A DNA stretch of 64,000 nt, from IMG/VR virus record IMGVR_UViG_3300037859_000002, positions 47,212-111,211 of that record, one strand, 5' to 3'. Below are positions 4,443 to 12,061 of this stretch, piece by piece. The translations under genes and the position numbers were made by a program. The stretch is from a virus. How positions within the stretch are numbered: position 1 is the first letter of the stretch; every line of letters begins with the position of its first letter. The notes beneath the pieces are model-generated. The model saw nothing but the letters and a program-made list of their open reading frames with translations, did not search any database and was not told the origin of the DNA.

Positions 4443-4685
4443 TCAGTCCCGTCGGTCGATCCAGTAGCGCGGCACCCGATGATCGGGTGGGAAGCCGAAG
4501 CTCCCATCCTGCTCGAGGGTGACCACGATGGTCTCGGGGGTCTCGATCGCGACGGTGTCGACCACGACGAGCTCGAACTGGAATGTCGTGTTCGTGCTGT
4601 CGGCGTCGGCGTAGCGGTCGCCCGCGAGGTCGATGACCGACCCCGGTGTGAGGTCGGCCACCCGAACCATTTCGGGCGCGATCAT
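4443..4685 (-). CDS. hypothetical protein
   Basis: MIAPEMVRVADL..., ATGA overlap with upstream gene. Confidence 0.65.
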   Translation of the reverse strand: MIAPEMVRVADLTPGSVIDLAGDRYADADSTNTTFQFELVVVDTVAIETPETIVVTLEQDGSFGFPPDHRVPRYWIDRRD

Positions 4686-4942
4686 CCTGTGCGATCCCAT
4701 CCTCCGGGATGGCCAGGACGTGGGGTGATCATCGTCACCCTGGGGCGTCGGCGCCGCCACTCGTGCAGCGCCAGCAGCCCGTAGAAGGTCGTGGCCGCGG
4801 CGCCTGTCGTCAGCGCCGCGGCCCACATGATCTGCTGCACCGTCGGGTCGTCCTCGAAGATGAGGAACACGCCGGTCGCGGCAAAGATCACGCCGGCGAC
4901 TCCGCTGATGCCCAGCAGGGCAAAGCCGAGAAGTCGGTACAT
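4682..4942 (-). CDS. small membrane protein
   Basis: two hydrophobic helices and a basic tail. Confidence 0.7.
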   Translation of the reverse strand: MYRLLGFALLGISGVAGVIFAATGVFLIFEDDPTVQQIMWAAALTTGAAATTFYGLLALHEWRRRRPRVTMITPRPGHPGGWDRTG

Positions 4943-5802: not shown

Positions 5803-6645
5803 ATGCCTAAGGGCCACCCGCCCTCCATCTGGGCCAGCATCCGCGCCGACTATGTCGCAGGCCTGGGCACGACCAACGACCTGGCCCGAACCTATGGCGT
5901 CGACGCCTCGGGCATCCGCAAGCGCCGCATCCTCGAGGCCTGGCCCGAACCGGGCGAACGCATCGTAGACACCGCCCTCTACAGGACCAAATCCAAGCAG
6001 GGTGTGAAACCCGCAGATCAAGCCCCGCGCTCGCCAAAGCAGCAGGCCGGAACACATTTCACACCCGAGGGTGTGAAACCCATGGAACACCCTGGAACAC
6101 CCCCCCGGACGGGCGTGCTCCAGAAGCCCCGAACGCGAGAGCAGGCGCTGCTCATGGCCGCCGAACGCGAGTTCGTCCGAGACCTCGCCATCATCGACGC
6201 CATCGCCCCCAAGGCGGCAGCCCTCATCGAAGACCACCTGGCCCGGACCGCCCAGCTCAAGCAGCACTTCACCCGGCTCCACACCCTCCTGGGCAACCTC
6301 ATCCACGACGACCCCCAGAAGCGCGCGACCGCACAGGACGTGCTCGGCCAGGTGCCGCCCGAAACGGTGCTGAACACGATGCTCAACCTGGCCTCGTCGA
6401 TCCAGCGGCTCGAGCGCCAGTCGCTGCAGCTCGACATGGGGCCCCGGCGCCTCGAGCTCACCGGCAAGGACGGGGCGCCGCTGCCCGCCACCCAGGTCAA
6501 CGTCGGTGTGGGCGTGAAGCTCGACGCCAAGACCATGACGACCGAGCAGCTGGCCGCCCTGGGCTCGGTCCTGGAGGCCGTGGACGGCCAGGCGCCGCGC
6601 ACGGCGCTGAAGCGTCCGCCCCAGGGGCCGATGATTGAGGGCTGA
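5803..6645 (+). CDS. terminase small subunit-like protein
   Basis: N-terminal HTH (WASIRADYVAG..LARTYGV..IRKR), C-terminal ELTGKDGAPL motif, upstream of TerL. Confidence 0.65.
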   Translation: MPKGHPPSIWASIRADYVAGLGTTNDLARTYGVDASGIRKRRILEAWPEPGERIVDTALYRTKSKQGVKPADQAPRSPKQQAGTHFTPEGVKPMEHPGTPPRTGVLQKPRTREQALLMAAEREFVRDLAIIDAIAPKAAALIEDHLARTAQLKQHFTRLHTLLGNLIHDDPQKRATAQDVLGQVPPETVLNTMLNLASSIQRLERQSLQLDMGPRRLELTGKDGAPLPATQVNVGVGVKLDAKTMTTEQLAALGSVLEAVDGQAPRTALKRPPQGPMIEG

Positions 6646-6649
6646 GCAG

Positions 6650-7390
6650 CGCCGGCCTTTCTTCGTGCGTCGGGCCCGTGGTAGAACGCGCGTCGCTACT
6701 GCCGAGGTCACGCTCGGCGTGAGTCCTGCGATGGCCTGGCCAGATCGGGCGGGGCGCTCCCCGCGGACATCGAGCACAGGGCGAACGGTGGAAGTAACGC
6801 CCCTCCAGTAGCCACTTGCACGGCACATCGAAGTGTGAGATACGGTGCGGGCTGCTTGGCGATCAGGCCCGTTACTTTGGAAACTGTAGGTCGTCCGTTC
6901 AAATCGGACCAGCGGTCGCAAGGCTGCTGTAGCTCAGCCTGGTAGAGCAACGGTATGAAACGGACCGCCCTAAATTCCGGCGGCAACTGCTAACCCATCC
7001 GGCCAGGGGTTGTGGCCGGGGACCGAGATGAGTGCCCCGCGAGGGGAGCCAAGCCCCCACAGGGGGCCGCCCGGTTGATCACCGGGCGCTCGGAGGAATT
7101 CAGTTCTGCGGTGGCCGGTACGAAGCGCGAGCAAAGAACCTCGTCGCCCCACGGGCAACCTTACAGTAGGGGCTGGCTACGCCCGGCACACGCAAGTGGG
7201 ATGCCGGCAACGTCGCAAAGCCAGTTCGGCCGCCCGGGACGCCGGGGCGCTCGGCCGACGTGTTGGCCATCGCAGAAGCCAGCTGATTTGGGGTGGTGTT
7301 CTCGGCCCGCATTTCGTGGGCCAAAGCCTTGATAAAACGAGCGTATGTGCTGGTGCCCTTGAGCTGGTCTGGCCATCGCGGAAGCCTTCG
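6650..7390 (+). ncRNA. large structured ncRNA candidate (possibly GOLLD-like)
   Basis: ~740 nt without a credible ORF; many hairpins with GNRA-type loops; internal 17-nt repeat; abuts tRNA-Met; ends approximate. Confidence 0.45.
6883..6954 (+). ncRNA. circularly permuted tRNA-like domain
   Basis: order is anticodon-stem 3' strand, variable loop, T arm, acceptor stem capped by GCAA, D arm, anticodon-stem 5' strand. Confidence 0.75.
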
Positions 7391-7392
7391 GA

Positions 7393-7469
7393 TGCAGGGT
7401 AGAGCAGCCCGGTAGCTCGTCTGGCTCATAACCAGAAGGTCGCCCGTTCGAATCGGGCCTCTGCAACCA
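7393..7469 (+). tRNA. tRNA-Met (CAT), initiator-like
   Basis: full cloverleaf; GAGCAGCCCGGTAGCTC D arm; CT-CAT-AA loop; TTCGAAT; encoded CCA. Confidence 0.92.
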
Positions 7470-7517
7470 CCCCGGCTCGGATTGCCACACACAAGCATAA
7501 CGTGAGCGCAAGCCGCG

Positions 7518-8006
7518 ATGCCCATCAACAAAGCCGTGCTTCATGTCTTGGAGCAAATAGAGCGGTCGCTCCGTATCAAGCTGCGGCCGCCGCCGCTCTC
7601 CGAACACGAGTTCGTCGCCGGATTGGACCGACACTATCCCGATCTGCCTGCCGCGCGCCGCGCTGCCCTCATCCAGGAATTCGCGGCCATGCAGAGGTTG
7701 GGGCCGCTCCGCAAGGAACGGGCCGCGGCCGCCCTCGAGGATATGCGGTCGGGCGCCAGCCGCGATCCCAGAGCGCAGGCCATCATCGAGATCCTGGATA
7801 TTCTCGGCCCACCCCCTGAAAACCCAGGGGCCGTACCGCTGGTCGGCGGCTTCCGTGAGCGTGTGGCCCGCAATCGCCAGGAGAAGGACCGGGAAAAGTG
7901 GCAGGACAAACTGCGGGAACGGTCCAAAGCCATGGCCAGAGCGAGATACAAGGCGCGCAAGGAGCGCCAGCTGGCCGAGTTGAATAACCTCCAGTCTGCT
8001 GGGTAG
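7518..8006 (+). CDS. hypothetical basic protein
   Basis: 162-aa ORF between the tRNAs. Confidence 0.65.
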   Translation: MPINKAVLHVLEQIERSLRIKLRPPPLSEHEFVAGLDRHYPDLPAARRAALIQEFAAMQRLGPLRKERAAAALEDMRSGASRDPRAQAIIEILDILGPPPENPGAVPLVGGFRERVARNRQEKDREKWQDKLRERSKAMARARYKARKERQLAELNNLQSAG

Positions 8007-8021
8007 CTTCCACAGGCTTTC

Positions 8022-8096
8022 GCCCCGCTAGCTCAATGGCAGAGCGCCCCCTTTGTAAGGGGATGGTTGCCGGGTCGAAACCGGCGCGGGGCTCCA
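8022..8096 (+). tRNA. tRNA-Thr (TGT)
   Basis: cloverleaf GCCCCGC...GCGGGGC T CCA; TT-TGT-AA loop; atypical T loop GTCGAAA. Confidence 0.88.
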
Positions 8097-8151
8097 CGCT
8101 TCCAAAACACATGAAAATGTGCGACAGGGGCGCCCCACCAGGAGGCTGCAC

Positions 8152-8547
8152 ATGCGCATCAAGGGCCGGCTCATCATCGACGAGTATGTGCCAGGCGAGC
8201 CGGTGGCACACCGATGGCCGCTCCGCTTCAAGATCACTGGCGAGGATCTCGATCATGAGTTCATGATCGACCGGCACATCCCCGCCGGGGGGCAGGCCGT
8301 GTTCGGCATCGACATCGAGGTCCTCACCCCGGCGCCCGATGCGGTGCCCCCGGGTGGTCTCGCCCCCACCGACTTTCCGCCGCGGCTCGGCGTCTCGAGC
8401 GTCGGAGGGATCAAGCCCGCGTCCCTTACCGATGCCTTGGTCGGAACCCTGATGAAGGTGACGCCGCTGCCCGACCCGGCGGTGATCACCGAGGCGATCG
8501 CCGCGATCGCCAAGCCCACGAGGGTGAAGCCCCGGCGCCGCCGATGA
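8152..8547 (+). CDS. hypothetical protein
   Basis: GGAGG RBS, MRIKGRL... start, ATGA overlap with next gene. Confidence 0.7.
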   Translation: MRIKGRLIIDEYVPGEPVAHRWPLRFKITGEDLDHEFMIDRHIPAGGQAVFGIDIEVLTPAPDAVPPGGLAPTDFPPRLGVSSVGGIKPASLTDALVGTLMKVTPLPDPAVITEAIAAIAKPTRVKPRRRR

Positions 8548-8813
8548 CCGCGTCAGAGCGTCGGCGCCTGGTCTCGACCGCGATCCTCGAGGCCGCGGGC
8601 GTCGTCCCCGAGGAGGCCGCGGCCCGAGACCCGGTCCCCGATGAAACCGACCTGCAGGGCCTGGGTCTCGACTCGCTCGACATGGTCGACATCCAGATCT
8701 CGCTCAACCTCGGGCTCGGCATCGACGTCCCGGACGCCGACATGGAGGGCCTCGAGACCGTCGGTCACATCTATGCCCTGGTGGAGCGCCTGTGTGATGG
8801 AACACCGGCCTGA
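8544..8813 (+). CDS. acyl carrier protein-like
   Basis: acidic, 89 aa, LGLDSLDMVD phosphopantetheine-attachment motif, GIDVPDAD..LETVG. Confidence 0.85.
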   Translation: MTASERRRLVSTAILEAAGVVPEEAAARDPVPDETDLQGLGLDSLDMVDIQISLNLGLGIDVPDADMEGLETVGHIYALVERLCDGTPA

Positions 8814-11365: not shown

Positions 11366-12061
11366 ATGCCGCGCGCACGCATCGATCCCGGTTGGCTGCG
11401 CGCGGCCCTGATGGATGAAATCCGCGCCTGCATCGCCGCCGGCCGGTCATTCCCGACCAACAGCGATCTTGGGGCGCGCTGGGACATCAACGCCGTCACC
11501 GTGGTCGAGAAGCTGAACCAGTTGAAGGCCATGAAGCTGATCAGGGTCGAGCGCTTCGGCAACAGCCGGCGAATCACCCTGGTCGAAACCGGCGGGCAGA
11601 CGAGGCTGCCCAGCGGGGTGCGCGAGACACAACACTGGTCCGAGCGAGGGGGGCGCCCCCCCCGGCGCGGGACCGGCGCCCGATCCGGGGCGCCTCCAGG
11701 GGGCGCGTCGGCCGCCCCAGCGAACCAAGGGGGCCTGACGCGCCGCCCCGGCGCCCGGACGCCCCAGGCGCCGGGTGTTTTTGAGGCCAAGGCCCCCGAG
11801 CCGACACCGGTGCCAGATCAGGCTGAAGTCCGACTGCGGGCCAACATCACCAGGGCGAAGAACCTCGCCCAGCGCTCCGTGGCCGGCACCTACAAGGCGC
11901 CGACGGTGTTGCCGGTCCCGCGACGCTGTGCGTTCCCCGTGCGTGACTGGCGCGCCCACCCGCGCGCCTGGTTCTGCGGTAGCCCCTCGGTCGAGGGGCG
12001 CCCCTATTGCGCCGCGCACTGCGAGGTCGCCTACCAGAAGCGCAAGGAAGAAACGGAATGA
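11366..12061 (+). CDS. HTH protein with GcrA-like C-terminal domain
   Basis: N-terminal winged-HTH-like segment; C-terminal RRCAFP..WFCG...GRPYCAAHCEVAY. Confidence 0.75.
   Translation: MPRARIDPGWLRAALMDEIRACIAAGRSFPTNSDLGARWDINAVTVVEKLNQLKAMKLIRVERFGNSRRITLVETGGQTRLPSGVRETQHWSERGGRPPRRGTGARSGAPPGGASAAPANQGGLTRRPGARTPQAPGVFEAKAPEPTPVPDQAEVRLRANITRAKNLAQRSVAGTYKAPTVLPVPRRCAFPVRDWRAHPRAWFCGSPSVEGRPYCAAHCEVAYQKRKEETE

Follow-up and report, generated by a model that had tools for sequence, protein, structure and literature searches.

The window analyzed in this study is a 64-kb stretch of DNA (64,000 nt) that spans bases 47212-111211 of the 111-kb IMG/VR provirus record IMGVR_UViG_3300037859_000002 and has a G+C content of ~67%. 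Our subject is a gene-free stretch of its packaging region (window positions 6646-7392), at whose centre lies a tRNA mimic of the YrlA/Y-RNA kind. On the + strand, the gene order is a 280-aa terS-like gene, the gene-free stretch, tRNA-Met, a 162-aa open reading frame (ORF), tRNA-Thr, two small ORFs and the large terminase gene, terL. The tRNA-Met (CAU), which an initial annotation made from the sequence alone had named as the 3′ neighbour of the stretch, was found by ARAGORN at 7393-7469 (+) and scores 61.9 bits with the Rfam tRNA model. The 5′ neighbour had been called terS; a gene does sit there, but this label is weakly supported, by a match to a PHROG small terminase (E = 0.009) and by a 27%-identical homologue located 5′ of terL in a Falsiroseomonas prophage. 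A Rfam scan of the full window at gathering thresholds returned two tRNAs only and no hammerhead ribozyme. The provirus is integrated beside a tandem tRNA-Arg pair, with an integrase adjoining. Relatives of its large terminase, with ~50% identity, are found in Acetobacteraceae (Rhodovarius, Falsiroseomonas) and on an Azospirillum plasmid, often on contigs of ~100 kb; thus, the host is probably an alphaproteobacterium of the Acetobacteraceae/Azospirillum neighbourhood.

The periodicity of GC content over codon positions is 0.4-0.6 in the flanking genes versus 0.04-0.24 in sliding windows starting at 6600-7450, and PHROG matches for mechanically called ORFs within the stretch were absent where tested. 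Since both codon periodicity and family matches are absent, protein coding was ruled out for the stretch, and the ~740 nt without a coding-like ORF that the initial annotation had described were confirmed at 6646-7392. The many hairpins with GCAA/GCGA loops reported there were also recovered: five GNRA tetraloops closed by at least 3 bp are present (at 6719, 6918, 7039, 7095 and 7192) against 1.5 ± 1.2 in dinucleotide shuffles, 14 of 1000 of which reach five. The minus strand has two such loops and every other 747-nt tile of the window has four or fewer; the enrichment is real but modest. The repeat noted at 7264-7280 and 7370-7386 is present over its first 17 nt as described and extends to a 31-nt direct repeat (7264-7294 and 7370-7400, 77% identity). 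Two reverse-complement copies of its first 11 nt, at 6726 and 7106, bring the copies of this 11-mer to four; in the 64-kb window, CTGCGRTGGCC has three exact matches and one copy with one mismatch, all within the stretch.

Compared with shuffled sequences (20 shuffles for each of these folds and their controls), the + strand folds with z = -3.7 over 6646-7392 and z = -5.3 over the 656 nt at 6726-7381, for which the minimum free energy (MFE) and centroid structures are almost identical. The minus strand gave z = -1.2 and two coding tiles gave z = -0.75 and -1.87. We found no sigma-70-like promoter and no convincing terminator within the stretch. The stretch is a structured, ORF-free, non-coding region on the + strand adjoining a tRNA gene.

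A large ORF-free structured phage stretch beside tRNA genes is also the setting of the GOLLD (RF02032) and ROOL (RF03087) RNAs, and the initial annotation had proposed a GOLLD-like or a new large RNA, pointing to the sequence ATAAAACGAG near 7332 as reminiscent of GOLLD. This context is all that speaks for either family. The cmsearch runs with the GOLLD and ROOL covariance models that the annotation had called for were made as set out there, and neither model matched at E ≤ 10 in the whole 111-kb record (the ROOL model also had no match in the control genomes); neither family appeared, moreover, when 6400-8200 was scanned permissively with all 4227 Rfam families. The sequence ATAAAACGAG is indeed there, at 7332-7341, but the proposed link to GOLLD was not found. 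Moreover, the modules of the stretch are of other kinds than those of GOLLD and ROOL and conservation of the whole region was not seen, and we give a GOLLD or ROOL identity a negligible probability. A group I intron and a hammerhead ribozyme were also considered and rejected, with no Intron_gpI or hammerhead match at E ≤ 10 in 6400-8200; the only ribozyme hint, a Twister-sister match of 13.7 bits (E 2.3), is at chance level.

Y RNAs together with Ro60 form RNA-surveillance particles, and the centre of the stretch is, judging by sequence comparison, an unlinked variant of the known YrlA/Y-RNA kind. This YrlA-class module, module 1 (6849-6980, + strand), was delimited with the Rfam YrlA model RF02553, our model R1 (see below) and BLAST, and comprises a tRNA-like domain, a connecting helix and flanking motifs (GUUACUU at 6871-6877 and AUUCC at 6973-6977). 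Its circularly permuted tRNA core, read from the sequence at 6883-6954 (+), begins with the 3′ strand of the anticodon stem (ACUGU), a five-base variable loop (AGGUC), the T arm and the seven-base 3′ strand of the acceptor stem. A C-GCAA-G cap then leads to the acceptor 5′ strand, U8-A9, a canonical D arm, A26 and the 5′ strand of the anticodon stem (ACGGU). The core thus corresponds to a tRNA that is open at the anticodon loop and has a closed acceptor end, and it lacks both CCA and an anticodon loop. As read from the sequence, all four stems are fully paired, and the bases of the tertiary contacts U8-A14, G15-C48, G18/G19-T-loop and G53-C61 are all in place.

The match of RF02553 to module 1 covers the whole model (6865-6970; 34.6 bits, E 2.5e-5). 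The YrlA RNAs (Chen et al. 2014, PMC4201824), discrete transcripts of 80-130 nt to which Ro60 binds, likewise have a permuted tRNA-like domain: near-invariant T and D arms flank a capped acceptor-like stem, the anticodon side leads into a connecting helix, and the tertiary-contact bases are kept. Additionally, the acceptor stem of module 1, with 7-8 bp, is like that of the Mycobacterium smegmatis YrlA, whose 7-bp stem is cleaved by RNase P (PMC4201824). The second RF02553 match in the record is the tandem tRNA-Arg pair (30.6 bits; 45 bits with model R1), which we rejected as a dimeric-tRNA false positive, a type of error with the YrlA model of which Chen et al. (PMC4201824) have warned. The mimic is unlike tandem tRNAs in that just six bases separate its two acceptor strands, which complement each other.

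A BLAST search of 401 Acetobacteraceae genomes showed that the core of the mimic is 76-88% identical, across the sealed junction, to Acetobacteraceae RNAs located directly upstream of genes for proteins with strong TROVE and vWA_Ro60 domains, one of which is followed by RtcB. The order rsr-yrlA-rtcB is the classical setting of these genes. In comparison with the nearest of these Y RNAs (genome G253), two T-stem pairs and one acceptor pair are altered on both sides; therefore, the fold has been kept by selection. With RF02553, the Ro60-adjacent Y RNAs of Acetobacteraceae score 40-54 bits, also below the gathering score of 69. We observed separately that the Y RNAs at loci L343, L348, L344, L355 and L356 (genomes G253, G348, G113 and G012) are missed by the curated threshold, that some of them are in tandem, and that they have in common the flanks GGGCCGGAGUUCGAYGGUUAUC and CGUCGGCGAUCACAUGACCGC.

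Three other identities were tried and rejected. A two-piece (permuted) tmRNA, in which a permuted tRNA-like domain is linked to a tag reading frame and pseudoknots, was dismissed since ARAGORN found no tmRNA and Rfam gave no tmRNA match, the D arm is full and the connecting helix provides a local closure of the domain. A DUF7873 partner with a double tRNA mimic was discarded, as no Pfam family, DUF7873 included, matches the four nearest proteins and there is one mimic only. Finally, a second tRNA or pseudo-tRNA behind the first copy of the direct repeat was rejected, tRNA features being absent there.

A Ro60 orthologue is encoded in the genome that carries module 1. The only TROVE gene of the record (G000:C1:5904-7445, - strand) encodes a 513-aa TROVE + vWA protein that is barely similar to host-type Ro60 and that matches phiRo60 of the Thermus phage phiLo (9KOP/9L5Y) with E 2.7e-27 over residues 70-497. 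phiRo60 has been reported to bind two phage Y-like RNAs, Yrl1 and Yrl2, and the host PNPase (PMC12135203). Scans with RF02553 and R1 found no YrlA-like RNA beside the provirus TROVE gene. As side observations at this locus (L179), a tRNA with anticodon CUA is located upstream of the TROVE gene on the same strand (7987-8059, Rfam tRNA 40.9 bits), adjoined by a sub-threshold tRNA-Sec-like match on the + strand (8078-8160), and an 83-aa ORF downstream (4631-4828, - strand) matches the C-terminal end of RtcB only.

We scanned IMG/VR with a pattern for GNRA-capped permuted tRNA modules and obtained at least about 122 matches, 50 of them with fully paired caps. Among the matches listed, 26 of the 50 capped modules are within ~0.6 kb of a TROVE gene on the same strand; 16 of these 26 TROVE proteins are of the provirus type, and 13 of the 16 are 35-43% identical to the provirus protein. 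Thirteen RNAs from beside phage-type TROVE genes could be aligned well (alignment A5), with covariation at 16 of the 22 pairs. Model R1, built from these 13 RNAs without the window sequence, matches the window at 6849-7014 with 51 bits (E 3e-11) and 20 of its 22 pairs canonical. With the same model, the family members score 99-142 bits and host-type Y RNAs 55-76 bits. In the A5 family, the handle is made up of a GGYGUAG-bulged helix on the 5′ side, GUUACUUC ahead of the variable region and a UGUUCC on the 3′ side. Like the A5 and phiLo RNAs, module 1 has an acceptor stem with a GNRA cap and the GUUACUU motif, and it partly matches the 3′ UUCC motif (AUUCC in place of UGUUCC); the provirus TROVE protein is of the phiRo60 type. 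The A5 RNAs differ in being located 0.1-0.6 kb upstream of their TROVE genes. For the putative Ro60 contact, a motif located near the 5′ end of Y RNAs, there are two candidates, GGCGAU at 6858-6863, within a 13-nt bulge of module 1, and GGCGAACG in the 5′ arm (6781-6788, ~85 nt before module 1), which matches the Y-RNA motif GNCGAAN0-1G; ~0.5 chance occurrences of this motif are expected per 747 nt, as estimated from base composition. There is certainty about the tRNA-like body but not about the Ro-binding handle. On a 4.5-kb IMG/VR contig (locus L480), we also noted 25 ARAGORN tRNAs and seven R1 matches, one of them a GNRA-capped permuted module.

Downstream of module 1, we identified a second element, M2 (module 2; 7103-7278, + strand), which is predicted to form five helices. 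Its closing helix P1 (7105-7122/7259-7276) has 18 bp, with 4 G-U, and is built from copies 2 and 3 of the 11-mer. The inner helices are a small hairpin (P2), a GCAA-capped helix (P3), a longer GCAA-capped helix with internal loops (P4) and a further hairpin (P5). Folded alone, M2 has z = -4.0, and a 168-nt counterpart from a Rhodovarius prophage (L342:1460-1627), with the same layout, has z = -3.3 (200 shuffles each). The conserved core of M2 (P3 and P4; 78 nt, 7147-7224, +) was found by BLAST of the Acetobacteraceae genomes to be 91% identical over 74 nt to Rhodovarius crocodyli G002:C2:73708-73780 (E 4e-21), where a GIY-YIG/resolvase-like gene precedes the intergenic spacer of the prophage that contains it. 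When the core is modelled with 26 pairs, both copies have canonical bases in every pair, and the eight substitutions are all compensatory, being confined to four pairs in which both sides differ. P1, P2 and P5 keep their positions, but their sequences are unrelated between the window and Rhodovarius; moreover, M2 differs from the Rhodovarius RNA in having no GIY-YIG gene nearby and in being nested in a larger stretch. Two IMG/VR pattern scans, one with all stems free, gave matches in the Rhodovarius prophage only, the record of the window itself being possibly outside these scans. The known copies are thus two, and there is no Rfam family for M2; a resemblance of the core to the c-di-GMP-I riboswitch, seen by eye, was dropped, as it has no Rfam support. 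We regard M2 as a candidate new RNA motif.

The two modules are set between arms that are also predicted to pair. The stop codon of the terS-like gene is followed by a leader (6646-6725, +) that forms a separate hairpin domain in the MFE structure of 6646-7392 and for which no homologue was found. The 5′ strand of a predicted outer closing helix comes next (6726-6748, +); it holds copy 1 of the 11-mer (CTGCGATGGCC) and would pair with 7359-7381 (+), which overlaps the second copy of the direct repeat, in a helix of 21 bp including 4 G-U. Based on sequence and predicted pairings, 6749-6848 (+) is a 5′ arm of hairpins that also holds, at 6791-6799, a complement of the mimic's GUUACUU motif. Between the modules, the MFE and constrained folds agree on four local hairpins (6976-7099, +), located at 6976-7020, 7029-7051 (GCGA loop), 7053-7067 and 7068-7088, the last three of which are enclosed by a 5-bp helix (7023-7027/7089-7093); no homologue of this cluster was found. 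Copy 1 of the direct repeat (7264-7294, +) supplies with its first 12 nt the 3′ strand of the P1 helix of M2, and the outer closing helix ends 11 nt before tRNA-Met.

Taking these observations together, we propose, with moderate confidence, that the stretch is a modular ncRNA locus in which a YrlA-class Y RNA and an independent five-helix RNA belong to a precursor co-transcribed with tRNA-Met. The locus would have been inserted between the terS-like gene and terL and would be read on the + strand. Transcription, processing and Ro60 binding are steps that we infer only. Very probably, the modules are transcribed together with tRNA-Met; this is the simplest assumption because no promoter-like site or convincing terminator lies inside the stretch. 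The RNA upstream of tRNA-Met would then receive its 3′ end by RNase P cleavage at the 5′ end of the tRNA, 11 nt beyond the outer helix. In the transcript, module 1 would be a sealed, back-to-front tRNA with its elbow intact, lacking an anticodon and a CCA end. By analogy with the bacterial Rsr-YrlA and the phiRo60-Yrl of phiLo, module 1 may bind the Ro60-like ring protein of the provirus, and its tRNA shape could recruit host enzymes that handle tRNA or other RNA, such as PNPase or tRNA modification enzymes. RNase P could be another such partner, since an acceptor stem of this kind, 7-8 bp long, is what turns the YrlA of M. smegmatis into a substrate of RNase P. Module 2 would be an independent five-helix RNA, which also occurs alone in the Rhodovarius prophage, and the arms around the modules can pair through the four copies of the 11-mer. 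Whether the modules stay joined as one RNA is doubtful, the chances being somewhat under even.

Several observations weigh against this proposal. The RF02553 score of 34.6 bits is half of the gathering score of 69, and the R1 score of 51 bits is far under those of the family members and near that of the tandem-tRNA false positive. The Ro60-like gene is ~46.6 kb (about 47 kb) upstream of module 1 on the opposite strand, whereas published YrlA genes are within 4 kb of Ro60 on the same strand (PMC4201824); a further difference is that module 1 forms part of 740 nt of structured, ORF-free sequence in the packaging region, next to tRNA-Met. Conservation of the Ro-binding part is not clear: the phage family's 5′ motif, GGUGGUGUAG, is missing, and the 13-nt bulge stands where the A5 family has its UAG bulge. 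A Ro-independent role for such modules is possible, because they occur in phages without any TROVE gene. Among the matches listed, 24 capped modules have no TROVE gene in the fetched locus, 16 of which have tRNA genes within 1.5 kb; in whole records of such modules, two of five have a TROVE gene elsewhere, and one complete 188-kb genome has none. Finally, searches of GenBank phages, of plasmids and of the genomes of 401 Acetobacteraceae and 401 Alphaproteobacteria gave no homologue for the region as a whole. Nor did over 200 terL-related loci drawn from viral, genome and metagenome collections, a set to which the closest terL relative, P0002 (68% identity, 6.7-kb JGI contig), does not belong. 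In the closest readable terS/terL relative, from Falsiroseomonas, the terS-terL gap holds ORFs and not this stretch. The stretch is lineage-specific.

The pairing of the arms raises the alternative that the locus encodes one new large structured RNA of ~650 nt (6726-7381), closed by the 21-bp helix, with the mimic, the hairpin cluster and M2 as permanent domains. Such an RNA would represent a new class of phage ncRNA next to a tRNA gene, GOLLD/ROOL-like in kind and not in sequence. The low z-score of the 656-nt fold and the near identity of its MFE and centroid structures favour this view, as does the lack of a promoter or terminator inside the stretch. The four 11-mers, found nowhere else in the 64 kb, follow one another in the order 5′,5′,3′,3′, as the two predicted nested helices (6726-6748/7359-7381 and 7105-7122/7259-7276) need. 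Both helices are longer than the 11-mer and, with four G-U pairs each, are specific to the + strand, which accounts for the strand asymmetry of folding. Enforcing the cloverleaf in the 656-nt fold costs 5.8 kcal/mol and leaves the nested helices, and with them the layout of the large RNA, in place. The sub-segments can be read in two ways. Taken alone, they fold no better than shuffles (z > -2): segment 6646-6848 has z = 0.4, and 6981-7099 has z = -1.9 on the + strand and -1.7 on the minus strand, which is weak and not strand-specific. The extra stability of the long fold is therefore long-range; nevertheless, the same result speaks against a single conserved large RNA. Its long-fold z-scores come from 20 shuffles, and the long-range pairing competes with the local Y-RNA-type helix. 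Additionally, because no whole-region homologue was found in the ~800 alphaproteobacterial genomes or the other collections, none of the long-range helices is backed by covariation; each of the two identifiable modules is also found by itself elsewhere, and the Falsiroseomonas relative has ORFs at this position. Of the "new large RNA" suggested at the outset, the structured ncRNA region stands, but two separable modules were identified in it and its integrity as a whole found no counterpart in the homologue searches. We consider a single large RNA of this kind unlikely. A related idea, in which the 656-nt RNA, as a single stable RNA of a new class, would serve during infection as a scaffold joining the Ro60-like ring, host tRNA-handling enzymes and some partner of the five-helix domain, seems to us rather unlikely.

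A further alternative is that the stretch is mostly inert mosaic DNA, a spacer that has acquired a Y-RNA gene fragment and one further RNA fragment by recombination, in which the 11-mers act as DNA, for example as small-terminase binding sites within a pac or cos site next to terS. Packaging sites typically have repeats in both orientations close to a terS gene, as established for lambda cosB and SPP1 pac. The lineage-specific nature of the stretch, the ORFs that related prophages have in the terS-terL gap, the patchy occurrence of the modules in otherwise unrelated elements and the lack of unusual folding in most sub-segments all speak for this explanation. Nevertheless, the tRNA mimic is intact in every stem and every tertiary-contact base and differs from its relatives by compensatory changes, and the substitutions in the M2 core are solely compensatory. 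Furthermore, the repeat helices extend past the repeats with G-U pairs that work only in a + strand RNA, and the + and minus strands differ strongly in folding. Inert mosaic DNA is, in our judgment, improbable.

If the modular ncRNA locus that we favour is considered in a wider context, it presents a mimic RNA separated from its presumed protein gene, located in a packaging region among tRNA genes and inside a larger folded stretch. For Y RNAs and Ro60 in phages, a role in the evasion of host defences has been proposed in the Thermus phage study (PMC12135203). Among the matches listed, about half of the capped mimics have no nearby Ro60 gene, and most of those are among tRNA genes. If the RNA works with a distant Ro60-like protein, gene adjacency would be an unsafe criterion for finding Y RNAs; if it works without one, tRNA mimics would have a wider role in phages. 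M2, with its two copies only, connects two prophages that have no other likeness in the regions compared.

Additional observations were made in the surroundings of the stretch and elsewhere in the record. Within the terS-like gene, the 13-mer GGGTGTGAAACCC occurs twice (window 6000-6081, +), 69 nt apart, and encodes a repeated GVKP peptide. At window 11843-11931 (-), ARAGORN predicted an 89-nt tRNA-Thr (UGU) that is below the Rfam tRNA gathering score. At the left end of the record (G000:C1:1-1653, locus L179), host-like DNA carries an RtcB gene, a 468-aa open frame that extends to the record edge, followed by the two tandem tRNA-Arg genes and the integrase. A gene of a kind unusual in packaging regions lies between tRNA-Thr and terL: an 89-aa ORF (window 8544-8813, +) that matches PF00550 (E 4e-8), the phosphopantetheine-attachment (acyl carrier protein-like) domain.

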